The translations under genes and the position numbers were made by a program. Shown piece after piece: positions 1 to 11,638 of a stretch of DNA of 64,000 nt (its first letter is position 1; every line of letters starts with the position of its first letter). The stretch spans positions 21,958-85,957 of the forward strand of contig JAUXAN010000003.1 of NCBI GenBank assembly GCA_030619885.1, given 5' to 3'. This DNA comes from a bacterium. Its GTDB lineage: Bacteria > Hydrothermota > DG-26 > JAUXAN01. Under the pieces are notes generated by a model. It made no database searches and was not told the DNA's origin. It was given only the letters and a program-made list of their open reading frames with translations.

Positions 1-476
1 ACACCAAGACGACATTTGAGATAGTTACAGATGAACTTGGTGCAAAAAATTCTGTTCTGGGTGGTGGAAGATATGACTATCTCGTTGAGGAGTTGGGTGG
101 GGACTCCACACCTGCAATAGGTTGGGCATTTGGTGTTGATAGATTGGTCTTGGCACTCGAGTCAGCAAAATTTAGATTTCCTGACGAGAGTAAAAAATTG
201 ATATTCATTGCATGGACGACTGAAACTGCAAAGAAACAGGCATTCAAAATCGCAAGGCGGTTGAGAACGGAGGAGTTTCGATGTGAAATGAATTATGAGA
301 AGAGTTTAAAAGCACAGTTAAAACTGGCTGATAGATTGGAGGCAAAACTTACCGTAATCGTTGGAACTCATGAATTAAAAGAAGGGAAGGTCATTTTAAG
401 AAATATGGAAGACGGCTCCCAGAGGAAAATAGATATCGAAAAGATAGAATTGGAGTTGAAGCAAATAATGTGTTAA
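1..476 (+). CDS. hisS: Histidine--tRNA ligase, C-terminal part (truncated by window start)
   Basis: Frame is open from the window start: TTFEIVTDELGAKNSVLGGGRYD...PAIGWAFGVDR (class II motif 3), followed by the anticodon-binding domain. Confidence 0.95.
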   Translation, partial: TKTTFEIVTDELGAKNSVLGGGRYDYLVEELGGDSTPAIGWAFGVDRLVLALESAKFRFPDESKKLIFIAWTTETAKKQAFKIARRLRTEEFRCEMNYEKSLKAQLKLADRLEAKLTVIVGTHELKEGKVILRNMEDGSQRKIDIEKIELELKQIMC

Positions 477-478
477 TA

Positions 479-653
479 AACCACAAGATTAACACAGATA
501 AGTGAATACCAGTCCACAGGATCCGTATGGAATGGAGAAGTCAGATTATCAAAAATCAGAAGAACATATATCTGGTGCTCTGATGTCTGAAACCTTATTC
601 TGATACTCTGATGTTCTGATACTCTATTCTTCAATATCTGTGAAAATCTGCGA
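479..653. repeat. Composite intergenic repeat cluster (inverted CACAGAT-type arms, half TCCGTATGGA palindrome, TCTGAT short-period repeats)
   Basis: aaccacaagattaacacagat (479-499) pairs with tatctgtgaaaatctgcg (~635-652); atccgtatggaatgga at 521-536; ttctgatactctgatgttctgatactct at ~598-625. Confidence 0.7.
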
Positions 654-674
654 TAAATTTTATAAAGAAAAAGA

Positions 675-702
675 TTGACTTTTGAAACTAAATTATTATA
701 TT
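675..702 (+). promoter_or_regulatory. Putative sigma70 promoter upstream of the radC remnant and island
   Basis: TTGACT (675-680), 16 nt spacer, TATATT (697-702). Confidence 0.5.
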
Positions 703-793
703 TATCCTAAATAATGCGTAAAGAGAAATTCCAAATACTACTAAATCACATTTGTAATATTATTTTGGGAAATATCCAAAGGCAAAATATAGT

Positions 794-951
794 ATGAAAT
801 ATCCTACAATCAGAGACATGGCATGAGTAAAAAAACGAGAAAACGGCTAATGAAAAAAGGTCTCGAAACCCTAATGGACTCCGAACTTTTGGCAATTCTT
901 TTGGATTCAGAATATAAAGAGAAAAAACAAGCAAGGAGAGAAACATGGTAG
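794..951 (+). pseudogene. radC: RadC/JAB family N-terminal remnant (frameshifted, truncated)
   Basis: 794: MKYPTIRDMA*; frame from 823: KTRKRLMKKGLETLMDSELLAILLDS, matching the RadC N-terminal pattern (RPRERLLxxGxxxLSDxELLAILL); ends at 951, overlapping the next ATG. Confidence 0.75.
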
Positions 952-2522
952 TTAAAAAACTGTCAGTTAGAGAAGAAGAATTCAAGAAGTTTAACATCAC
1001 TGAAGAGCAATTTGGTCCGGTGATGCTTAGCAGATTGGGTAAGGGTCTATATAAAAATTCTTTACATTGTGTTCGTGAATACATTCAAAATGCTGTGGAT
1101 GGAATTAACAAGTTCAATAGGGAATTTCCCGATGATCCAACAGACAAGATCATTAGAATTCAGGCTGAGGGTGATACTATAATTTTTCATGATAATGGAA
1201 TAGGTATGAATAAAGAAGATATTCTTACAGCCATAAGCTTTGGAGTTTCTCTAAAAGAAAGAATATACGACGCTGGTTTTTTGGGAATCGGTATTTTTTC
1301 TGGCGCTGCGATTGCTGATAGGTTACGAATATATACTACCAAGAAGGATGAGGTGAAGGCATTGGTGTTTGAAATTGACTTCAAATACATTGACAAAAAT
1401 TATAAAGAGTACACAAGTGGTCTGAAATTATTGAGGGATGCAACTCAATTTCAAGAAGTGGATGAAGACGAAAACAAACACTATTGCGAAGCCACTCTTT
1501 ATGTAAATAAAGAATATCGATCTTTGCTTAAAAATGATGCAGAGATTAGACGATATATTTCGAATGTTTGTCCAGTAGATTTTCCAGATGAGTTTGAATA
1601 CAAACCAATTATTACCGATTTTTATAAAAAATATGAAATAGAAGATCAAATTTTTGACATTCGATTAAATAAGATTCCCGTTTATCGACCATTTCCAACG
1701 AAAGTTAAAGAACCTGAATTTAAAGAGGTAATACACAAAGGTAAGCGATTGGCTGTATATTGGTACTGTGAAAATAAAAAGAAAGGTGTCATTGAAGGAA
1801 AAGAGAAAAAGAACGAAGATGATATAAGATACATAACTTATAGGTGGCGCAATTTCTTGATAGATGATCCTGACAGGCGAGATTATGCTGCTAGAGAGTT
1901 ATTTAGAGGAAGACCTGAATTGATGAAAAATTATTTTGGAGACATTCATATATTGGACTTGGAGGATATTGAACCTGATTTGGAGAGAACAGGAGTTAGG
2001 CACACAGACACATATAAGCAATTTAAAGGTAGTATTAGAGATAGAAAAAATCCTAACAATATATTACTACTCTATGACCAAGCACACGATGTATCTAAAC
2101 AAAAAACGTTGATGAAGGAAGTTGAAAAAGTCGAAGAAATTTGTAATAAAATCAATGAAAGAAAGCTTCCAACTAAGACGGAAGAACTTTATAAGAAAAA
2201 ATTTGAAATCGAGGAACAGAAAAAGAATATAATGAAAAGGAAAAGGGAGAGCAGGGGCAGGGCTTATGATAAACTTTCAACTCCCGAAAAACAAAAGGTA
2301 GAAAAAAGCATAAAGAAATTAGAGAAGAAAGAGAAGAAAATAGAAAAGCATATTGTTGAATCACAGAAGGATAGGACCAAACCCAAGGAACCCCGTTTTG
2401 ATTCCAAGATTGAGATAAAAATTGAACAGGTATTAAGGATTCTTAAAAGACATCTTAAGAATCATGCAACTCTTTATAATGCTATTATTAAAGATTTAGA
2501 AGCGTTGGTCAAAGGCAAGTAA
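945..2522 (+). CDS. GHKL (HSP90/MORC-like) ATPase with C-terminal coiled coil
   Basis: GHKL motifs VREYIQNAVD, HDNGIGM, GFLGIG; K/E-rich helical C-terminus. Confidence 0.85.
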   Translation: MVVKKLSVREEEFKKFNITEEQFGPVMLSRLGKGLYKNSLHCVREYIQNAVDGINKFNREFPDDPTDKIIRIQAEGDTIIFHDNGIGMNKEDILTAISFGVSLKERIYDAGFLGIGIFSGAAIADRLRIYTTKKDEVKALVFEIDFKYIDKNYKEYTSGLKLLRDATQFQEVDEDENKHYCEATLYVNKEYRSLLKNDAEIRRYISNVCPVDFPDEFEYKPIITDFYKKYEIEDQIFDIRLNKIPVYRPFPTKVKEPEFKEVIHKGKRLAVYWYCENKKKGVIEGKEKKNEDDIRYITYRWRNFLIDDPDRRDYAARELFRGRPELMKNYFGDIHILDLEDIEPDLERTGVRHTDTYKQFKGSIRDRKNPNNILLLYDQAHDVSKQKTLMKEVEKVEEICNKINERKLPTKTEELYKKKFEIEEQKKNIMKRKRESRGRAYDKLSTPEKQKVEKSIKKLEKKEKKIEKHIVESQKDRTKPKEPRFDSKIEIKIEQVLRILKRHLKNHATLYNAIIKDLEALVKGK

Positions 2523-2523
2523 G

Positions 2524-3471
2524 ATGATAGATGTTTTTACTGGAGGTCCAGTTAAGGATAAAATAAGAAAGGAGTTGGATGCTCCACTTATAAAAGAGGT
2601 TAGTAAAGACGGAAAAGAAAAGTTGTCATATTTTGGCCTATCTGGTCCATTGCTCTATGATATTATCGAATGGCAAGACTACTTGAAAGACTTTACAGTA
2701 GTTGAGGAAAGTTATACTGGAAGAAAAGAAAGGAGTATGGAAAGAAACCGCCAAGAGTTACTTCTAAAGAATTCTTTTATTACACAATTACGAGATGGTA
2801 GAGGAGTAATCAATGATTTTCTTGCAGTAATATACGGAGACATTGATAGAGATATCATTCTAAAAGGCAAAGGAGATTTTGGTAAGGAATTACCAAGACA
2901 ACAGTTTGGGCTTATATATCTAGACTACTATGGCGGTATCTTCAAAGCCAAACACAGAGAAGATGCAATCAAGAAACTTATTTCCAATCAGAAAGAAATT
3001 TCTGAAAAGGATTATGATTACGTTTTGCTCATTACAGTGGAAAATTTGGATAAAGGAGAGGCAGAAAAAAGGAAATTAGCGAATGAAATATTGGATAATT
3101 TAAAAAATGCTCGAGTAGAAAATGGGTCTATAGAGAACTTTAATAAGTTTTTACAGGGTTGTAGATATGGGTTATTGCAGAAAATATATGTTCCTATCCA
3201 GATATATTTGTATACAAAGTTTTGTGGAGATGGAATAAAATTTTATGAACCTGTTATTTATCAAGAGAATAAAATCGAGATCAAGAAAAGTGCCGAAATG
3301 CTTCATTTTAGATCTATTATTTCAATTCAGAAAGGAAAAAGGACAACCACGCCTTTAATCAAAGATATAGTAGGTATTTGTAATTTGAAGCTTCTGACTG
3401 TAGAAAATGGTAAAATTGTTCCATACAAAGAGCAATTTCCTGAATTATACCTAAATAAGAAAGCACAATGA
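2524..3471 (+). CDS. Hypothetical protein, putative divergent class I SAM-dependent methyltransferase fold
   Basis: Strand order LSYFGLSG / FTVVEE / VIYGDID / LIYLDYYG / YVLLITV resembles a Rossmann MTase; starts 1 nt after the ATPase stop. Confidence 0.5.
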   Translation: MIDVFTGGPVKDKIRKELDAPLIKEVSKDGKEKLSYFGLSGPLLYDIIEWQDYLKDFTVVEESYTGRKERSMERNRQELLLKNSFITQLRDGRGVINDFLAVIYGDIDRDIILKGKGDFGKELPRQQFGLIYLDYYGGIFKAKHREDAIKKLISNQKEISEKDYDYVLLITVENLDKGEAEKRKLANEILDNLKNARVENGSIENFNKFLQGCRYGLLQKIYVPIQIYLYTKFCGDGIKFYEPVIYQENKIEIKKSAEMLHFRSIISIQKGKRTTTPLIKDIVGICNLKLLTVENGKIVPYKEQFPELYLNKKAQ

Positions 3472-4616
3472 AAAAAAATGTTCTACTTGTTGAACCAGCA
3501 TATAAGAACCCATATCCTCCTTTGGGTATGATGAAAATTTCAACATGGTATAAGAGAAAGGGAAATGATGTCCAGTTTATTAAAGATACCCTCCATAGTC
3601 CCGAACTCGATCGTTTTGATAAGAAAAGGATGTGTTACAAGAAACTCAAGGATTACTATGATATTATATATATAACAAGTTTGTTCACATATCAAGCCCA
3701 TTATGTTATTGCTTCAACAAATTACTACAAAAACAGGTTCCCTGATACTCAAATAAAAGTGGGGGGGATCATGGCAACCCTCATGCCAGAACATATCGAA
3801 AAAAAGACTGGCATAAAACCGCATATTGGGCTACTCCGAGGAGCTGAAAACTGTCCACCAGATTATTCTTTGTACCCTAACCTAGAATATTCGATCACTT
3901 TCACAACTAGGGGATGTCCTAGACATTGTCCTTTCTGTGCCGTAAGGAAGCATGAACCAGAGTTTATTTTAAAAGAAAATTGGTTGGAAGACATTGACAT
4001 TACAAAAAAGGGCATAATTTTCTGGGATAATAATTGGTTTTTTTCACCCAATTTCGAAAAGGATATTAAAAGGCTTATTGAATTTCAGAAAGTAGGAATA
4101 ATCCAAATTGATTTTAATCAAGGTCTAGATTGCAGATTATTTGATGAAGATAAAGCCAAACTTTTGAGCAAAGTAAAGATTAATCCACTGAGATTTGCAT
4201 TTGATAATTGTTCAGAAGACAAATATATACAGAAAGCTATACAGTTGGCTCAAAAATGTAGATTCAAAGACATAAGGGTTTATGTCTTATATAATTTTGA
4301 AGATAATAACGATACACCAGAATACTTTTATTATAGAATCAATGAACTGAATAAATTGGGGGTACTGACATATCCAATGCGTTATCGTCCTTTTAGTCTC
4401 AATGGTCAGTATGTCTCTCCCAAATGGGATAAACAACTGCTAAGGGCTCTAAAATTATCTCTTATGTTCTATTATACGAAAGGAATGATTAGAAAAAGCC
4501 GAGAAGCTTTTAAAGATATCTACGGAAACAATGCTAATGAATTTAAGAATAAATTATATAAGATATATGAGAATGATAAATTAAAAAATAAAAACAAAAC
4601 TGAGGACATAAATTGA
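3468..4616 (+). CDS. Radical SAM protein with N-terminal cobalamin-binding-like domain
   Basis: TTRGCPRHCPFC (CxxxCxxC); N-terminus VLLVEP..YPPLGMMKIS..IYITSLFT..VGG typical of B12-binding radical SAMs; ATGA overlap with the upstream gene. Confidence 0.85.
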   Translation: MKKNVLLVEPAYKNPYPPLGMMKISTWYKRKGNDVQFIKDTLHSPELDRFDKKRMCYKKLKDYYDIIYITSLFTYQAHYVIASTNYYKNRFPDTQIKVGGIMATLMPEHIEKKTGIKPHIGLLRGAENCPPDYSLYPNLEYSITFTTRGCPRHCPFCAVRKHEPEFILKENWLEDIDITKKGIIFWDNNWFFSPNFEKDIKRLIEFQKVGIIQIDFNQGLDCRLFDEDKAKLLSKVKINPLRFAFDNCSEDKYIQKAIQLAQKCRFKDIRVYVLYNFEDNNDTPEYFYYRINELNKLGVLTYPMRYRPFSLNGQYVSPKWDKQLLRALKLSLMFYYTKGMIRKSREAFKDIYGNNANEFKNKLYKIYENDKLKNKNKTEDIN

Positions 4617-4689
4617 AAAACAGATTGAAAGTGAGGATCGCGAGAACCTTTAAATATAAGGTGAGAAAGAAATTGAGATTTTCATCATT

Positions 4690-5727
4690 ATGGGAAAGGT
4701 GAAGGCAACAAGAGAAATATATGAAGGCACATTGCCATTGCTAATACCTGAAAAGGTAAAGCCTGTCAAGCTGCCTATCCGAATAAAATACAAGGAATAT
4801 CCAATGCTTGATGGGTCAAGAAAAAATTTAGTTCAACAGGTTGGAGATGGAGCAATTATCAAGCGATTCGAAAAAACACCAGTGCCTCAAAAGAAAATAG
4901 ATGTAGTATGCCCACATTTTCTTGAACTAAAATGGGCTACTGGTTGTCCTTACGACTGTTCGTGGTGCTACCTAAAAGGGACTTTCCGCTTTTTGCCTTA
5001 CAAGACTAAACCCCATATAAAAGATTTTGATAAGATTAAAAAACATACTCAAGTGTTCTTGGAATATGTCGAAGAGCCTGAAATCTTAAATACAGGTGAG
5101 TTAGCAGATTCACTAATGTATGAAGGAAACAAAAAATCGTTTGTAAATTTTATAGTCCCTTTATTTGAAAATAAAAGTAAACATAAGGTCCTTTTCTTAA
5201 CCAAATCAGATAGAATACAGAATCTCATGAAACTTGATTCTCATAAGCAAGTAATAACAAGTTTTAGCTTGAACGCCATCCCTGTGGCTTGTAAGTGGGA
5301 ACTTAAAGCCCCGTCTGTAAAAAGACGAATAAAGGCCGCAAAAACACTTTATGACGAAGGATTTGAGGTAAGAATACGTATAGATCCTATGGTTCCTATA
5401 GAAAATTGGGAGAAATTATATCTTGAGTTAATTGACGATTTATTTGATTCACTTATACCCGAAAGGATAACTTTGGGTTCTCTTCGTGGATTACAAAGCA
5501 CTATCAACGGGGCAACAGATACATCATGGGTTAAATATCTTTCAGAATATTCAAATTGGGGTAAAAAAATAGATATAAATTCAAGACTTGCTATGTATAA
5601 AAATCTTATTTCATATCTACAAAAGAAACACAATTTTACCAAAGTAGCTTTTTGTAAAGAAAGCGTAGCTGTATGGGAAATACTCAAATTGGATTACAAA
5701 GAAATAAGATGCAACTGTGTTTGGTAA
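4690..5727 (+). CDS. Spore photoproduct lyase-like radical SAM protein
   Basis: ATGCPYDCSWCYL, NTGELADSL, FLTKS and IRIDPM motifs typical of the SplB family. Confidence 0.8.
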   Translation: MGKVKATREIYEGTLPLLIPEKVKPVKLPIRIKYKEYPMLDGSRKNLVQQVGDGAIIKRFEKTPVPQKKIDVVCPHFLELKWATGCPYDCSWCYLKGTFRFLPYKTKPHIKDFDKIKKHTQVFLEYVEEPEILNTGELADSLMYEGNKKSFVNFIVPLFENKSKHKVLFLTKSDRIQNLMKLDSHKQVITSFSLNAIPVACKWELKAPSVKRRIKAAKTLYDEGFEVRIRIDPMVPIENWEKLYLELIDDLFDSLIPERITLGSLRGLQSTINGATDTSWVKYLSEYSNWGKKIDINSRLAMYKNLISYLQKKHNFTKVAFCKESVAVWEILKLDYKEIRCNCVW

Positions 5728-5739
5728 AAAGGATAAACT

Positions 5740-6837
5740 ATGGTTGTTAAAGAAACAATATGGAAGATTGAAGCACATACACAAGCGAAGCACGCCGTAT
5801 TGGACAGATATCTGAAAGCTTGGCTTCCCATAATGAGTAAGTGGAATGGTCGGATTCTTTATATCGACGGTTTTGCAGGGCCAGGTAAATACTTTGATGA
5901 GGAGAATTTGCCAACTATCGATGGGTCTCCACTCATTGCCCTTAATGCAGCAAGAAAACATAAACTTCAGCTAAATGCAGAAATAGTATTCCTTTTTATT
6001 GAAGCAAGACATGATAGGTGTGAATATCTTAAAAGCCTGCTTGAATCAATAGATATACCTAAAAATATGAGATACGAAGTAATAGAAAGCAAATTTGACG
6101 AAACTCTCTCTTCCTTGCTTGATTATCTTGATGAACAGAAGAAAAGGCTTGCTCCAGCTTTCGTATTTATTGATCCATTTGGCTACTCGGATACTCCTTT
6201 TTCACTCATTAAACGAATAACAGAAAATAAAAAATGTGAGGTGCTTATCACATTTATGTATAGTTTTATTAAAAGAGCACTTACTAAATCTGACCAAGAA
6301 GGACATTTAGATAGACTTTTGGGAACTCAAGATTGGAGAAAGGTTCGTAATATCAATATTCCTCTAAAGAGAAAAGAATTTATTCAGCAACTTTATAAGA
6401 AACAACTGGAGGAAGAAGCAAAAATAAAATATGTCCGATTCTTTGAAATGATCAATAAATTCAACCAAACTGAATATTTCCTTTTCTTTGGAACCAATAA
6501 TCTTGAGGGACTTAGACAAATAAACGCTGCCATGTGGAAGGTTGATCCAAAGGGCACATTTCAATTCTCGGATAGAACAAATCCTAACCAAACAGTGCTC
6601 TTCACTCCTGAACCTGACTATAATTTACTTAAAAAGTTAATTGTCCGAGAATTCAGGGGTAAAACAGTTCCAGTTGAAGAAATTGATGAGTTTGTTTTAA
6701 TATCTGGGTTTACTCATTTCAAAAGGAATATTTTGAAGCCAATGGAAAAAGCAAAACCTCATGAGATAGAAATAATTGAGAGCAGTAGGGAGCGGAAAGG
6801 AACTTATCCTCCGGATTCACTTATTAAGTTTTTATGA
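5740..6837 (+). CDS. tcmP: Three-Cys-motif partner protein (TcmP family, methyltransferase-like)
   Basis: HTQAKHAVLDRYLKAW, YIDGFAGPG, FIDPFG, YFLFFGT...MWKVDP signature motifs. Confidence 0.88.
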   Translation: MVVKETIWKIEAHTQAKHAVLDRYLKAWLPIMSKWNGRILYIDGFAGPGKYFDEENLPTIDGSPLIALNAARKHKLQLNAEIVFLFIEARHDRCEYLKSLLESIDIPKNMRYEVIESKFDETLSSLLDYLDEQKKRLAPAFVFIDPFGYSDTPFSLIKRITENKKCEVLITFMYSFIKRALTKSDQEGHLDRLLGTQDWRKVRNINIPLKRKEFIQQLYKKQLEEEAKIKYVRFFEMINKFNQTEYFLFFGTNNLEGLRQINAAMWKVDPKGTFQFSDRTNPNQTVLFTPEPDYNLLKKLIVREFRGKTVPVEEIDEFVLISGFTHFKRNILKPMEKAKPHEIEIIESSRERKGTYPPDSLIKFL

Positions 6838-7043
6838 CTTGGGTAAAAATTATGAAGGCAGATAATACAGAAGTTAAAAACAAATTTTCTGAAAGGCCAA
6901 AGTTACTTAATCGCCCACGTTGTTATACTTACAATCCAAAAGACGGCTGTTTGTATTGCGGGAATAAAACTTTCCGGTATTATTCTTCTGTATTTGGGAA
7001 AAAGTACTATCAATGCGAAAAATGCGGGGGTATAAATCATTAA
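6834..7043 (+). CDS. Small Zn-ribbon protein
   Basis: CLYCG...YQCEKCG; ATGA overlap with the tcmP stop. Confidence 0.55.
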   Translation: MTWVKIMKADNTEVKNKFSERPKLLNRPRCYTYNPKDGCLYCGNKTFRYYSSVFGKKYYQCEKCGGINH

Positions 7044-7189
7044 CTTTGAAATTTCTTGATGTTACTGAAACAAGAAGAATTTGACTGCATAATGAAACTT
7101 AAGCAGTTCAAAAATGATGATGAAATTAACTTATTCTATTCTATCGGGCGAATGACCCCATATTTTCAGTTAATGTATGAGATAGAATT

Positions 7190-7867
7190 ATGAAAGCGTG
7201 TTTTTTTGATTTTGGCGGAACATTGATGGACGACAAGAGTGACAGACTTGCTCATCTGGAGGTCATAAAGAAGATAGAACAGACCTACAAGGTTGAGACC
7301 CCCTCAGAAAAGATACTCTCTCAACTGGAAACATATATAAGATTTTTTGCAGAGAAACGTGCGAAGAGATGGATTAAATCAAAAAGTTTATTTTTAGATT
7401 CTTTTAAAAATATACTCGGTCTTGAAATCGACCCGGATTGGTTTATGAAAATCTACTACGATGCCCATAAACGATGCTGTAAATTATTTCCTTATGCTAA
7501 ACAAGTATTGAAAGATGTGAAAGAGATGGGATGGTATTTGGGGCTCATCTCCGATATAGACGATGAGTATCTGTATTTTCAACTTGGTGAATTTTCTATA
7601 AGCGAAGACATTTTCGATTCGATAACCACATCCGATGCGGTGGGTGTTGGGAAACCGACCCCTTTGATATTCAAAACAGCACTCGATAAATGTGGAGGTG
7701 AGCCAAAAGTTGCTTTCTACATAGGAGATTCGCTTGATAAGGATATAAAAGGGGCAAAGAGGATGGGTATGCAAACGATATGGTTTAAGGGCAATAAACA
7801 CGAAGATGCAGATTATGTGATAAGTCAACTGAATGAAATCCCGCTGATTCTATCTAATGAAGGTTAG
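7190..7867 (+). CDS. HAD-superfamily hydrolase
   Basis: FFDFGGTL, GKP, IGDSLDKDIKGA motifs. Confidence 0.9.
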   Translation: MKACFFDFGGTLMDDKSDRLAHLEVIKKIEQTYKVETPSEKILSQLETYIRFFAEKRAKRWIKSKSLFLDSFKNILGLEIDPDWFMKIYYDAHKRCCKLFPYAKQVLKDVKEMGWYLGLISDIDDEYLYFQLGEFSISEDIFDSITTSDAVGVGKPTPLIFKTALDKCGGEPKVAFYIGDSLDKDIKGAKRMGMQTIWFKGNKHEDADYVISQLNEIPLILSNEG

Positions 7868-8603: not shown

Positions 8604-9617
8604 ATGAAGGTAAAAGAAATCGCCAGAGCTGTTGAAGGAAGATTGATAGGAAATGGAACCATTGAGATAGAAAATGTTGTGCCTATCAAAGAAGCAAAGA
8701 AAGGGGATATTACTTTTTTTCATGATAAGAGATATATCAAATATTTGCATAAAAGCAAGGCATCTTGCATAGTCGTTCCACAAGGGATGGAAGAGCTAAC
8801 GACTACAGTCATAGAAGTAAAAAATCCTGCCCTTGCCTTTGCCAAAATTCTAAACTTTTTTGCTCCTCAAAAGAAAATGGAAAAGGGGATACATAATACT
8901 GCAATCATTGGAAAGAATGTATCTATCCACAAGACCGCATCTATTCAAGCCTTCTGTTGCATCGGTGATGATGTGAGAATTGAAAAGGGTGTCTGTATCT
9001 TCCCTTATGTCTATGTCGGTTCAGGAACTACGATAAGGGAAAACTCAAAGATTTATTCCAATGTAACAGTTAGAGAAAACTCAAAGATAGGAAAGAGGGT
9101 GATAATCCATTCTGGAACTGTAATAGGTTCGGATGGCTATGGATATGTGAAGGGCGACGGTCATCATCGCAAGATTCCACAGATAGGAAAAGTAATAATT
9201 GAGGATGATGTCGAGATAGGTGCCAACACCGCTATAGACCGTGCAACCCTCGGCGCTACAGTGATAGGGCGAGGTACGAAGATAGATAATCTTGTCCATA
9301 TAGGTCATAATGTAAGAATAGGAGAAAATTCGCTCATAATCGCCCAGGTTGGAATATCTGGCAGCGTAGAAATCGGTAAAAATTGTGTACTCGCAGGACA
9401 GGCAGGTATTAGTGACCATATAAAACTTGGAGATAATGTAATAGTTGGGGGTCAGGCAGGGGTTACAAAATCTTTCCCGTCCAATATGAAAATCTCCGGT
9501 TATCCTGCAAGACCCCACTCCGATGCGCAAAGGTCTTATGCAACTATTTCAATGTTGCCTGAACTGCTGCATAGATTGAAGAATCTGGAAAAAAAATATG
9601 CAGAGAACATTAAATAA
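8604..9617 (+). CDS. lpxD: UDP-3-O-acyl-glucosamine N-acyltransferase (start moved to MKVKE)
   Basis: Hexapeptide repeats, [18 protein letters not shown]. Confidence 0.95.
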
Positions 9618-10881
9618 AAAAGGTTCTTTTACTGGAACGGGGCTTCATACAGGAAACAAGACGACCATAACCTTTAATCCATCCCCAGATGATAGTGGAA
9701 TCAAATTTGTGCGGACAGACCTCAAAGATAGACCCGTCATTGAAGCAGACATTGACCATGTAGTGGAGACTGATAGAGGAACGACCATATCTTTAAATGG
9801 CGTAAAAATCCACACGGTCGAACATGTGCTTGCGTCTATATCTGGTCTTGAAATTGATAATGTGAGAATCGAACTGAACGGTTCTGAACCACCTGTCGGC
9901 GACGGAAGTTCTCTACCATTTGTTGATACGATAAAAAAGGCAGGCATTAAAGAAGGGCAGAAAGAAAGGGACTATTATGTAATTCGCAAACCTTATGTTT
10001 TTTCCGATGGTGATGTTCATATAGTTGCAAATCCCGCAGATAACTTGAAAGTATCGTTCACAATAGACTACCCGAATCCTATAGTGAAATCACAGTATAT
10101 ATCCCTGTCAATAGACCCGAAGACTTTTTCGAAGGAAATCGCACCTGCAAGAACTTACTGTTTTGCTGAAGATGTGGAGAGGCTGAGAAGTAAGGGGTTG
10201 ATAAAAGGCGGAAGTTTTGATAATGCAATAGTAATAACAAAAGATGGTTTTATGAACGAAACACCACTCAGGTTTCCCAACGAGTTCGTGCGGCACAAAA
10301 TAATTGACCTTCTTGGTGACCTGGCACTCTTGGGTGGTCCTCTCAATGCCCATATAATCTCTATAAAATCCGGCCATAGAACTAATGTTAAATTTATACA
10401 AAAGTTAAAAAAATATGTTCAAAAAGAAAAAGCTGGATCTTTTGATATTTCAAATATACTCGAAGTTATGCCTCATAGATACCCTTTCTTGCTCGTTGAC
10501 AGAATCATTGAACTTGAACCCAAAAGGGTTGTTGGGATAAAAAATGTCACTTTTAACGAACCTTACTTTCAAGGACATTTCCCTGGAGTGCCGGTAATGC
10601 CTGGTGTGCTCATTGTAGAGGCGATGGCTCAGGTAGGTGGGTTTCTTCTACTCCACTCGGTAGAGAAGAAAGAGAACAAACTCGTCTATTTTGTAGGAAT
10701 AGATGGGATAAAATTCAGAAGACCTGTGAAACCTGGGGACCAAATCAGGTTTGAACTCAATCTACTTAAACACAAGGCAAGGATGTACAAGATGTCAGGG
10801 CATGCATATGTGGATAATCACTTAGTATGCGAGGGCGAACTTCTTGCCCAGGTAGTGGAGAAACCAGATGGAAATAGATAA
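9598..10881 (+). CDS. lpxC: Bifunctional LpxC/FabZ
   Basis: [22 protein letters not shown] (LpxC) fused to [27 protein letters not shown] (FabZ). Confidence 0.95.
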
Positions 10882-11638
10882 GACAGCGATCGTAAGCTCT
10901 GAAGCGAAACTCGGAAAGAATGTGAAGATAGGTCCATTCAGCACCATCGATAAGAATGTAACCATTGGTGATGGAACTAAGATAGGTCCGAACTGCCACA
11001 TAACTGGATGGACAGAGATAGGGAAGAATTGTGATATCTTACACGGGGTGGTAATCGGCAATCCACCACAGGATGTGAAATTTAAAGGTAAAAGGAGTTT
11101 TTGCGTCATAGGAGATGGAAACATGGTAAGGGAATATGTGACGATCCATAGAGGTTCGGACTATGAGAGTAAGACGGTAATAGGTTCCAGTAATTTTTTA
11201 ATGGCATATTCACATGTCGGACATAACTGCAACATTGGAAACGGCATAATACTCGCAAACGCAGCTAACCTCTCTGGATATGTTGAGGTAGAGGACTTTG
11301 CCTTCATATCAGGGCTTGTTCCTGTCCATCAATTCGTGAGAATAGGCTGTTACTGTATGATCGGAGGTGGTTACAGAGTACCAAAAGATATTGTTCCATA
11401 TTCACTTGCAGGTGGTTATCCGATCCGCATATGTGGGCTCAATACCGTGGGTCTGAAACGGCACAAGTTTAAAGCCGAAATAAGAAATATACTGAAGGAG
11501 GCATACAAGATAATATTTTTTTCCAACCTCAATACGCATCAGGCGATTGCAAGGGCAAAGACAGACCTCCCACAGAGAGAAGAGGTAAAACATCTGATAG
11601 AATTTATTGAGAATTCTACCAGGGGTATCGTAAAATGA
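10868..11638 (+). CDS. lpxA: Acyl-ACP--UDP-N-acetylglucosamine O-acyltransferase
   Basis: PPQDVKF, REYVTIHRG, HVGHNC, VHQFVRIG. Confidence 0.95.
   Translation: MEIDKTAIVSSEAKLGKNVKIGPFSTIDKNVTIGDGTKIGPNCHITGWTEIGKNCDILHGVVIGNPPQDVKFKGKRSFCVIGDGNMVREYVTIHRGSDYESKTVIGSSNFLMAYSHVGHNCNIGNGIILANAANLSGYVEVEDFAFISGLVPVHQFVRIGCYCMIGGGYRVPKDIVPYSLAGGYPIRICGLNTVGLKRHKFKAEIRNILKEAYKIIFFSNLNTHQAIARAKTDLPQREEVKHLIEFIENSTRGIVK

Follow-up and report, generated by a model that had tools for sequence, protein, structure and literature searches.

A rare, foreign gene island in which an Hsp90-like ATPase travels with radical SAM enzymes: a candidate DNA-modification or defence cassette

We analysed a 64,000-nucleotide stretch of bacterial DNA (the window) in which six genes, p1–p6, form a foreign and rare island that was probably acquired horizontally, its foreignness being seen in a low G+C content (Table 1). 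We give an even chance to the reading that this island is a rare, undescribed DNA-modification or defence cassette with restriction-modification-like logic, in which p1–p4 form the core and are joined here by TcmP and a Zn-ribbon protein. Synteny, gene fusions, family matches and foreign composition were observed directly; from these we infer that DNA is the substrate, and likewise the chemistry and a role in defence. Judged by sequence, the p1–p4 gene set appears to be an undescribed variant of GHKL-associated restriction-modification-like systems, and we found no description of it in the literature. A preliminary description of this DNA had proposed a DNA-modification or defence system. Its outline is partly borne out by the rarity and foreignness of the block, the defence genes that neighbour its relatives and the synteny of p1–p2–p3, while its MORC ATPase, its pairing of p2 with a radical SAM enzyme and its fixed TcmP and Zn-ribbon components were not upheld.

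Table 1. Features of the island, with positions in the window.
Feature	Position	Strand	Evidence or context
AT-rich island	477..7189	.	Between hisS and HAD hydrolase/nth genes; G+C 0.332
radC stump, UPF0758_N (N-terminal) part only	823..951	+	PF20582 match; ends inside p1 start
p1, Hsp90-like GHKL ATPase, 525 aa	945..2522	+	PF13589, E 8.4e-8
p2, 315 aa, distant relative of NCBIfam PP_RS20740 family	2524..3471	+	Constant downstream partner of the ATPase
p3, short radical SAM protein, 382 aa, N-terminal B12-binding-like domain	3468..4616	+	CX3CX2C; phrog_9298
p4, SPL-like radical SAM protein from a clade paired with or fused to TcmP	4690..5727	+	PF20903, 54.6 bits
p5, TcmP, RlmJ-like methyltransferase fold, weak C-terminal wHTH match	5740..6837	+	TIGR04474, 226 bits
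p6, small conserved Zn-ribbon protein	6834..7043	+	Cys pattern; start may be 6852

The layout is as first reported: six co-oriented open reading frames, whose successive junctions are TAA-G-ATG (1 nt), an ATGA overlap at 3468–3471, gaps of 73 and 12 nt, and a second ATGA overlap at 6834–6837, set between the 3' end of hisS on one side and the HAD hydrolase and nth genes on the other. The impression that the block is AT-rich also held, the genome as a whole having a G+C content of 0.396. Only 0.31% of 1956 genome windows of 6.7 kb are equally low (sd 0.020), and GC3 is 0.27–0.31 in the six genes as against 0.34–0.385 in the flanking genes. No direct repeats longer than the chance length flank the island. 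The broken radC at its start is indeed present, as a frame of 52 codons in which PF20582 matches 829–927 over profile positions 8–40 of 77 (E 1.4e-5; 26.5 bits, just under the cut-off of 27.1). An intact radC lies directly 5' of p1 in a related locus (L001) and another on a different contig of the source genome, and the stump more likely derives from a radC carried by the island than from an interrupted host gene.

The first gene, p1, encodes a GHKL ATPase, as had been proposed: it scores 32.8 bits against PF13589 (cut-off 25), and the residues of its motifs E45..N49..D52, D83NGIGM and G111FLGIG are invariant in the alignment of its family (A4). The more specific label, MORC, does not hold. 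When the p1 profile was compared with the PDB, the best 60 of 169 matches were all to Hsp90, TRAP1, HtpG or Grp94; a search with the single sequence was likewise Hsp90-like, and the A4 profile matched the N-domains of Hsp90, TRAP1 and HtpG at 1.7e-16. We therefore rejected a closer kinship with MORC or MutL than with other GHKL branches, and p1, as far as its sequence tells, is Hsp90-like, not MORC-like. Beyond residue ∼175, the part in which a MORC ATPase would have its S5-fold domain, no sequence match was found, Pfam seeing the ATPase domain alone. The coiled coil ascribed to p1 is reflected in composition only, the C-terminal third being rich in lysine and glutamate, with 30% K+R and 18% D+E in residues 381–525.

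The second protein, p2, had been called methyltransferase-like, which we could not substantiate: there are collinear motifs but no significant match anywhere. We found no match to p2 in Pfam, PADLOC or the PDB and no significant similarity to proteins of known function, and hhalign paired it with TcmP at a probability of 9.7% (E 0.0033). Against NF047698, the model of the PP_RS20740 family, p2 reaches 20.8 bits, below the curated cut-off of 200, and 53 of 60 wider relatives match this model at E<=1e-3 (best E 1e-16). The p2 family has 152 representatives at E<=1e-3; the close families are tiny and matched in size, with 14 relatives of p2 and 16 of p1 among 5.8 billion proteins. A p1-type ATPase gene lies directly upstream of p2 in all nine related loci with upstream sequence, and a HATPase_c_3 ATPase gene directly upstream of the distant p2-like gene in three of three cases; no radical SAM gene was found beside these distant pairs. 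The constant partner of p2 is the ATPase, not a radical SAM enzyme. Of the two radical SAM–methyltransferase pairs originally put forward, p4–TcmP is supported, by fusions and an adjacent pair, and p2–p3 is not, the invariant neighbour of p2 being the ATPase.

Directly downstream of p2, p3 is found in six of the seven related loci with downstream sequence, the exception being L009, where p2 is truncated and p3 absent; phage p3-like genes stand alone. The B12 domain ascribed to p3 was not confirmed as described: PF02310 (B12 binding; 23.3–25.5 bits, cut-off 32.1) and PF04055 (radical SAM; 27.2 bits) both fall below their cut-offs, although p3 has a CX3CX2C motif at residue 150, kept in 5/5 copies compared, and a match to phrog_9298 (1.7e-59). 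The source genome has nine B12-binding domain matches, counting the sub-cut-off match of p3 itself; CobS was not found there.

For p4, the description as an SplB-like radical SAM enzyme was confirmed, its PF20903 score of 54.6 bits exceeding the cut-off of 27, with a CX3CX2C motif at residue 86 and a match to solved SPL structures at 1.4e-7. It is not, however, a true spore photoproduct lyase, since it scores 68.1 bits against TIGR04070, for which the equivalog cut-off is 400. The TcmP label of p5 is equally secure (226.2 bits, cut-off 53), and the PADLOC candidate PDC-M30A matches p5 at 8.2e-60. The TcmP profile matches the RlmJ methyltransferase at 1.7e-4; PF22560 (wHTH) gives 18 bits in p5, below its cut-off, and 45 bits in the fusion of L033. 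TcmP is the usual and often fused partner of the clade of p4: within the same phylum there are four fusions, to whose radical SAM parts p4 is 57–63% identical, and one adjacent pair (L036; 62%). The Zn ribbon of p6 was verified as five Cys (C30, C39, C42, C61 and C64) that are invariant across 19 aligned homologues. The homologues, 26 in number, 62–83% identical and one from an archaeal MAG, begin at the residue aligned with M7, and the true start of p6 may be the later one given in Table 1.

What recurs elsewhere is p1–p2–p3 together with an SPL-like radical SAM gene, and the single, syntenic six-gene system first envisaged is retained to that extent. TcmP was present in none of 10 p2-related loci and the Zn ribbon in none of five extended TcmP–radical SAM loci; p5 and p6 are therefore not established as fixed parts. 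The SPL-like gene is in the same operon as p1–p2–p3 in L003, L004 and L008. L003 and L004 share a block of 6231 nt at 92.7% identity that runs exactly from the SPL-like gene through p3, with flanks that are unalike. In a further genome, G178, a radC–p1–p2–p3 contig stops about 27 codons short of the p3 stop, and another contig opens with a p3-tail-like peptide and stop, followed by a p4 homologue (62% identical); we infer that p3 and p4 are adjacent there across the assembly gap. TIGR04474 found no TcmP in this 76%-complete genome, including the 1.5 kb downstream of the p4 homologue. An SPL-like radical SAM enzyme accompanies p1–p2–p3 in every lineage with readable flanks, namely the window, L003/L004, L008 and, probably, G178. 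A HerA ATPase like the C-terminal part of DndH (3e-60) precedes p1 in five of the seven loci with upstream sequence; none was found in the source genome with the L003 protein as query.

It is possible, if on the unlikely side, that the island holds two unrelated, independent systems that merely lie side by side, an ATPase–p2–B12 radical SAM system (945–4616) and a PDC-M30-like system of TcmP, a radical SAM enzyme and a Zn ribbon (4690–7043). The 73-nt gap would fall between them, all other junctions being 1–12 nt or overlaps, and the absence of TcmP from p2-related loci has its counterpart in the absence of p1–p3 near other TcmP genes (0/28 loci with 1.5 kb flanks, 0/5 extended loci), five loci having TcmP–radical SAM units without p1–p3. 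Moreover, p4, so close to the TcmP-fused enzymes, shares only about 30% identity with the SPL-like enzymes encoded in HerA-type cassettes, and the recurrence could therefore be two unrelated recruitments. On the other hand, an SPL-like gene is with p1–p2–p3 in each readable lineage, the p4 homologue of G178 follows the p3 tail where TcmP was not found, and the source genome, 2.46 Mb in size, has only two p4-like genes, the second without TcmP and without p1–p3.

That the island is instead one cassette concerned with defence is suggested by the company its relatives keep, in agreement with the association originally claimed. The distant ATPase–p2 pair of L061 adjoins a Dcm–HhH-GPD fusion, and those of L062 and L063 adjoin DndC-like proteins (1e-119 to 1e-129), L063 having an N6/N4 methylase as well; the ATPases of the distant pairs match the N-terminal parts of type II REase models built from REBASE. 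With a Dcm methylase or DndC-like enzymes as neighbours of these pairs, a logic resembling restriction-modification is indicated, in which p3 would fill the ‘modifier’ slot. Near related cassettes we found MqsA/SocA antitoxin, SIR2, PD-(D/E)xK, BglII-like and type III RM genes, the BglII-like gene being 3' of p3 in L007; in L003 the match is only weak and falls beyond the block common to L003 and L004. Both p2-like genes (5/272 genomes) and TcmP (28/272) are patchily spread. PADLOC, suggested as a check alongside DefenseFinder, gave no match for p1–p4; because TcmP is already catalogued there as PDC-M30A, the statement that the genes belong to no named system holds for p1–p4 only.

A pathway outside defence seems to us improbable, whether one in which radical SAM enzymes tailor a peptide or cofactor and the Hsp90-like ATPase is the chaperone, or one of SPL-like repair of DNA lesions. 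In its favour, natural-product pathways often contain B12-type radical SAM enzymes, the nearest relatives of the p1 ATPase domain are chaperones, p4 has a single characterized relative, a repair enzyme, and none of the six proteins was recognised as a nuclease or other effector in family and profile searches. Yet neither a transporter gene nor a precursor-peptide-like one is present in the block, a wHTH domain occurs in TcmP fusions, and the patchy spread, the defence genes around the cassettes and the DNA methylases and DndC-like genes beside ATPase–p2 relatives all speak against such a pathway. Least probable is that the window copy is a decaying remnant, no longer working as a system after the loss of its HerA-type motor and of the greater part of radC: radC is down to a 33-residue match, the HerA-like ATPase of most relatives is missing and L009 is clearly truncated, but every one of the six ORFs is intact and the ATPase and CX3CX2C motifs are kept, and the HerA-less form with radC upstream recurs in G178 with proteins 61–74% identical to those of the window, which argues for selection on this form.

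Several known systems resemble parts of the island. SPL acts directly on DNA, and p4 shares with SplB its Pfam family and the CX3CX2C motif; unlike SplB, the clade and relatives of p4 are linked to TcmP or a HerA-like ATPase, and p4 lies on a mobile island. In the TcmP/DUF5131 system (TIGR04474; PDC-M30), TcmP is also paired with a radical SAM-type enzyme, and p5 passes the TcmP model. The partner differs: DUF5131 accompanies TcmP in 4/4 other loci tested and is not in the window, its alignment consensus is C-x6-C-x2-C in place of the CX3CX2C of p4, and hhalign relates the two at a probability of 7%. The gene order of the TcmP fusions is the reverse of that in the window. PDC-M30 is itself a candidate, for which the available literature yielded no experimental test. 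As for the Dnd phosphorothioate system, distant ATPase–p2 pairs carry a DndC-like gene and most close relatives an ATPase resembling the C-terminal motor of DndH (of DndFGH), whereas the window is without DndA, C, D, E, F and G and without a DndC- or DndH-like gene, and has a radical SAM enzyme in the modifier slot.

With the MORC/paraMORC ATPases, p1 has in common its GHKL fold, intact ATP motifs and location on a mobile island, and its distant relatives lie beside Dcm and N6/N4 methylases, as in MORC-containing restriction-modification operons (Iyer, Abhiman and Aravind 2008, PMC2292703). Unlike them, p1 has an ATPase domain nearest to Hsp90, the window has no SF2 helicase, and the fixed partner is p2 and the neighbours radical SAM enzymes; the available text of that paper has 0 mentions of radical SAM. 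Tiamat and other Hsp90-like antiphage ATPases (10.64898/2026.09.30.754977) share an Hsp90-like N-terminal ATPase and a defence setting. In distinction from these, p1 has 525 aa with a Pfam ATPase domain only, is never alone and always has p2 next to it; it gave no PADLOC TmtA match at E<=0.01.

Were the preferred reading of a single DNA-modification or defence cassette correct, a p1 dimer with p2 would form an ATP-driven DNA-handling pair. A mark would be written on DNA by p3, most likely as a methyl group that a cobalamin-dependent radical reaction places on an unactivated carbon; we propose p3 as the writer because it occupies the place of the Dcm methylase or DndC-like enzyme in related ATPase–p2 pairs. 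A second radical reaction on DNA would be run by p4, guided by TcmP. For the step that harms unmarked DNA the window has no recognisable gene; in most relatives it would fall to a DndH-type HerA motor. Taken to its full extent, and rather unlikely in that form, this would be the first restriction-modification-like immunity with a DNA self-mark written by radical SAM enzymes, through C-methylation by p3 and an SPL-type reaction by p4/TcmP, with an Hsp90-like clamp acting with p2 and the ATPase–p2 pair as a chassis also for Dcm- and DndC-type modifiers.

At four to six genes, the cassette is compact enough to be tested directly. If the reading is true, the writers of the epigenetic marks used in bacterial immunity would include, besides methyltransferases and the Dnd/Ssp/Dpd enzymes, radical SAM enzymes, a cobalamin-dependent one among them, and one or more undescribed DNA bases or sugars would be predicted. 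Restriction-modification-like systems would gain a new exchangeable core in the ATPase–p2 pair, and the function of three unstudied sets of proteins would become approachable for the first time: PP_RS20740-like proteins, TcmP and the SPL/DUF5131-type enzymes of mobile elements.

The six genes form a block (see table) bordered by the 3' end of hisS on one side and by a HAD hydrolase gene and nth on the other, and their junctions are as first described: TAA-G-ATG between p1 and p2, then ATGA, 73 nt, 12 nt and ATGA. The AT-richness attributed to the block is borne out by a G+C content of 0.332 over the island (477–7189), compared with 0.396 in the genome and in the rest of the window. An equally low G+C was found in 0.31% of 1956 genome windows of island length (sd 0.020), and GC3 is 0.27–0.31 in p1–p6 against 0.34–0.385 in the flanking genes. 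Neither flanking direct (att-like) repeats nor promoters or terminators rose above chance around the island, and an Rfam scan of 1–7400 returned no element and no cobalamin riboswitch. In a comparison of hisS/nth synteny, the nearest genomes were 40–48% identical at nth, too far off to reveal an empty site.

Genes of the island in the window
Gene	Product	Positions	Strand	Length (aa)
p1	GHKL ATPase	945–2522	+	525
p2	ATPase partner	2524–3471	+	315
p3	B12-type radical SAM	3468–4616	+	382
p4	SPL-like radical SAM	4690–5727	+	345
p5	TcmP	5740–6837	+	365
p6	Zn-ribbon protein	6834–7043	+	69

The preliminary description had the block start inside a broken radC. A stump is present: 829–927 resembles positions 8–40 of the RadC N-terminal family (E 1.4e-5, 26.5 bits; cut-off 27.1), within a 52-codon frame that reaches into the start of p1. 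However, the stump more probably derives from a radC carried by the island than from a host gene interrupted by insertion, because in L001, a locus from a second Hydrothermota genome (G178), p1 is preceded at a distance of 2 nt by a complete radC of 231 aa, and another contig of the window's own genome carries an intact radC. L001 is a 14231-nt contig (C17) that stops about 27 codons short of the p3 stop. Contig C15 of the same genome begins with 14 codons and a stop, resembling by eye the tail of p3, followed from nt 40 by a p4 homologue (62% identical over residues 21–345). The interruption of p3 on C17 and the p3-like tail on C15 argue that the contigs are very probably neighbours, which would give the order radC-p1-p2-p3-p4 across the assembly gap. 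No TcmP was found downstream of the C15 p4 homologue, or anywhere in the 76%-complete G178.

The ATPase had been labelled MORC. p1 passes PF13589 at 32.8 bits and retains the GHKL motifs, and its PDB matches argue for an Hsp90-like protein instead: a profile of 21 relatives finds the N-domains of TRAP1, HtpG and Hsp90 at 1.7e-16, the best 60 of its 169 matches all lie in the Hsp90 branch, and a single-sequence search agrees. The composition of the last 145 residues (30% K+R, 18% D+E) is consistent with a C-terminal coiled coil. The close p1 family (16 relatives) is on a par in size with that of p2, for which 14 relatives of 57–83% identity were found among 5.8 billion proteins. P0189 (867 aa), checked as a possible ATPase–p2 fusion, is not one.

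p2 has no match in Pfam, PADLOC, PHROG or PDB, and shows weak kinship (20.8 bits; cut-off 200) to NCBIfam PP_RS20740, a family that appears in the accessible part of the literature only as a hypothetical protein (PMC9630843). A profile search gave 152 p2-family representatives; PP_RS20740 is matched at E<=1e-3 by 53 of the 60 that were aligned, and none of these 60 has a Pfam match. Comparison by hhalign with a single TcmP sequence gave a probability of 0.13% with either of two p2 alignments, and profile against profile it gave 9.7% (E 0.0033), with collinear motifs. A p2-like gene is present in 5/272 genomes of the phylum, and two queries found none in plasmids.

Scans of genomes and metagenomes, each run once and seeded from p2, yielded ten loci, of which nine are metagenomic and one is from a MAG; no close relative stems from a cultured organism. 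Wherever sequence before p2 is available (nine loci), the gene immediately preceding it is p1, and p3 immediately follows p2 in six of the seven loci with downstream sequence. The exception, L009, has a p2 copy (3–632) with a diverging C-terminus and an early stop, after which come unrelated ORFs in the opposite orientation, and is therefore a decayed or recombined cassette. TcmP occurs in none of the ten loci, and p6 gave no match there at a threshold that is insensitive for a 69-residue query. Thus, of the co-occurrence proposed for all six genes, p1-p2-p3 synteny is conserved but the link to TcmP is not.

Two genes immediately precede p1 in L003, L004 and L008, one for an SPL-like radical SAM enzyme and one for an ATPase of 455–459 aa, separated by gaps of 5–10 nt or overlapping. 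This ATPase matches the DndH C-terminal motor at 3e-60, and also mad8. A HerA-type ATPase likewise precedes p1 in L006 and L010, bringing the count to five of the seven loci with upstream sequence; it is missing from the window and from L001. L003 and L004 have one block in common, 6231 nt at 92.7% identity, whose limits coincide with the SPL-like gene at one end and the p3 end at the other while the flanks differ, and this marks a five-gene cassette. Of two BglII-like genes, that of L003 is weak and falls outside this block; that of L007 is clear (3.4e-19) and follows p3. The L003 cassette is flanked (873–1691 and 8683–10947) by MqsA/SocA-Panacea antitoxin-like, PD-(D/E)xK (PDC-S26-like) and SIR2-like genes.

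More distant relatives bear on the role of p2, which had been proposed as the partner of a radical SAM enzyme. The three distant p2-like genes of the phylum (L061–L063) each have a 540–552 aa HATPase_c_3 ATPase directly upstream. In L061 the pair's neighbour is a fusion of a Dcm methylase with an HhH-GPD glycosylase, in L062 it is a DndC-like protein, and in L063 a DndC-like protein together with an N6/N4 methylase; the E-values of the two DndC-like proteins against DndC are 1e-119 to 1e-129. The L061 fusion (563–2218), upstream of the pair, joins a C5-methylase to a glycosylase-like domain of mismatch-repair type. The three ATPases match the N-terminal ends of two models for type II restriction enzymes, with one of which p1 aligns over the ATPase domain (probability 94%). 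The constant neighbour of p2 is therefore the ATPase, which argues against the proposed partnership. Because each distant pair has DNA-modifying genes beside it, the pair is the constant element and the modifying enzyme the variable one, a slot that p3 occupies in the window's family.

A second GHKL island lies outside the window on another contig of the genome (L064, contig C54, 3028–11801), adjoined by a radC N-terminal fragment. Besides two methylases, one of Eco57I type and one N6/N4, it encodes a 751-aa protein with an N-terminal HATPase_c_3 and a C-terminal histidine-kinase-type HATPase_c domain, and two further proteins of 334 and 289 aa; the 334-aa gene beside the ATPase is not p2-like. 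Its layout resembles the MTase and HATPase part of the five-gene system Ambrosia, as presented in the accessible part of its source (10.1101/2025.09.30.679545).

p3 had been designated a B12-domain radical SAM enzyme. It has a CX3CX2C motif at residue 150 and a strong match to phrog_9298; the Radical_SAM and B12-binding Pfam matches are both below threshold. In the phage loci L012 (Marinitoga camini virus 1, 4998–6080), L013 and L014, p3-like genes (27–37% identical) are solitary, surrounded by genes for replication and recombination; in L012 the gene adjoins HerA and a NurA-like exonuclease on the other strand. The window's genome contains nine B12-binding domain matches, including the sub-cut-off one of p3. 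A search for CobS in the genome, which is 97% complete, found none, and cobalamin would therefore need to be imported or salvaged.

p4 had been called SplB-like, which holds for the broad SPL Pfam family but not for true SPL, whose equivalog model it matches at 68 bits against a cut-off of 400. Plasmids and phages contain only distant SPL-family matches to p4 (24–29% identity), and the single region inspected among them was devoid of annotation. Two clades, with about 30% identity between them, make up the SPL-like enzymes: p4 belongs to the one linked to TcmP, and the other is linked to HerA. A second p4-type gene of the same genome (L065, contig C51, 6066–7031; 61% identical) has no TcmP, and the 249-aa gene upstream of it has merely a weak DUF3800 match.

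The assignment of p5 to TcmP holds (226 bits), and DUF5131, the partner named for TcmP, is its neighbour in four of four loci tested. p5 matches the PADLOC candidate PDC-M30A at 8.2e-60, and the TcmP profile matches the rRNA m6A methyltransferase RlmJ at 1.7e-4. TcmP is present in 28 of the 272 genomes of the phylum. Ten of its DUF5131 partners share 55–61% identity with the first one. A p4-type enzyme (57–63% identical) takes the place of DUF5131 in five loci, which come from four genomes; it is fused to TcmP in four (673–704 aa) and adjacent in one. In L040–L043, of which two were checked, TcmP is fused to a third radical SAM type (Radical_SAM with weak DUF5131; 585–592 aa). Alignment of DUF5131 with p4 by hhalign gave a probability of 7%; the accessible part of the RadicalSAM.org account places DUF5131 and SPL as sister groups in one megacluster (PMC9477430). 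A type III RM system adjoins one of the loci that pair TcmP with a radical SAM enzyme, and the TcmP fusion in L033 carries a wHTH at 45 bits.

The Zn ribbon p6 is a real conserved gene, with 26 homologues, including one from an archaeal MAG, and five invariant Cys (19 aligned); identity is 62–83% over the C-terminal ~48 residues, an unusual degree of conservation in so small a protein. The homologues begin at the residue aligned with M7, and the true start may be 6852. No relative was found in viral contigs, nor in other genomes of the phylum beyond one weak match in 271.

The main rival explanation is that two independent systems are merely co-located in one island. This view still deserves serious consideration, since p4 falls within the TcmP clade and TcmP–radical SAM units occur on their own; p1–p3 and a p6-like gene are absent from the other such loci.

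PADLOC v2 has no match for p1–p4, and hence none of p1 to Tiamat (10.64898/2026.09.30.754977), a near but different system as far as its accessible text goes; the same text-limited comparison sets Ophion and Ambrosia near to, and apart from, this gene set. MORC/paraMORC ATPases of RM operons are described without radical SAM in the accessible part of Iyer (2008; PMC2292703), whereas radical SAM is present here. The literature, supplementary candidate tables aside, yielded no description of the gene set. The earlier view that no named system matches thus stands for p1–p4 but not for TcmP, already a candidate, and the set may possibly have been catalogued elsewhere.

We conclude that the block fits a modular restriction-modification-like cassette, in which no effector was recognised within the window. 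SPL acts on DNA; because, in addition, the ATPase–p2 pair adjoins methylase or DndC genes and TcmP fusions carry a wHTH, we infer that DNA is the substrate. The core would comprise the ATPase, p2, the B12-type and the SPL-like radical SAM enzymes, and individual lineages would extend this core either by a DndH-type motor or by TcmP together with the Zn ribbon, as well as by radC, with putative radical chemistry by p3 and p4 and a putative role in defence.
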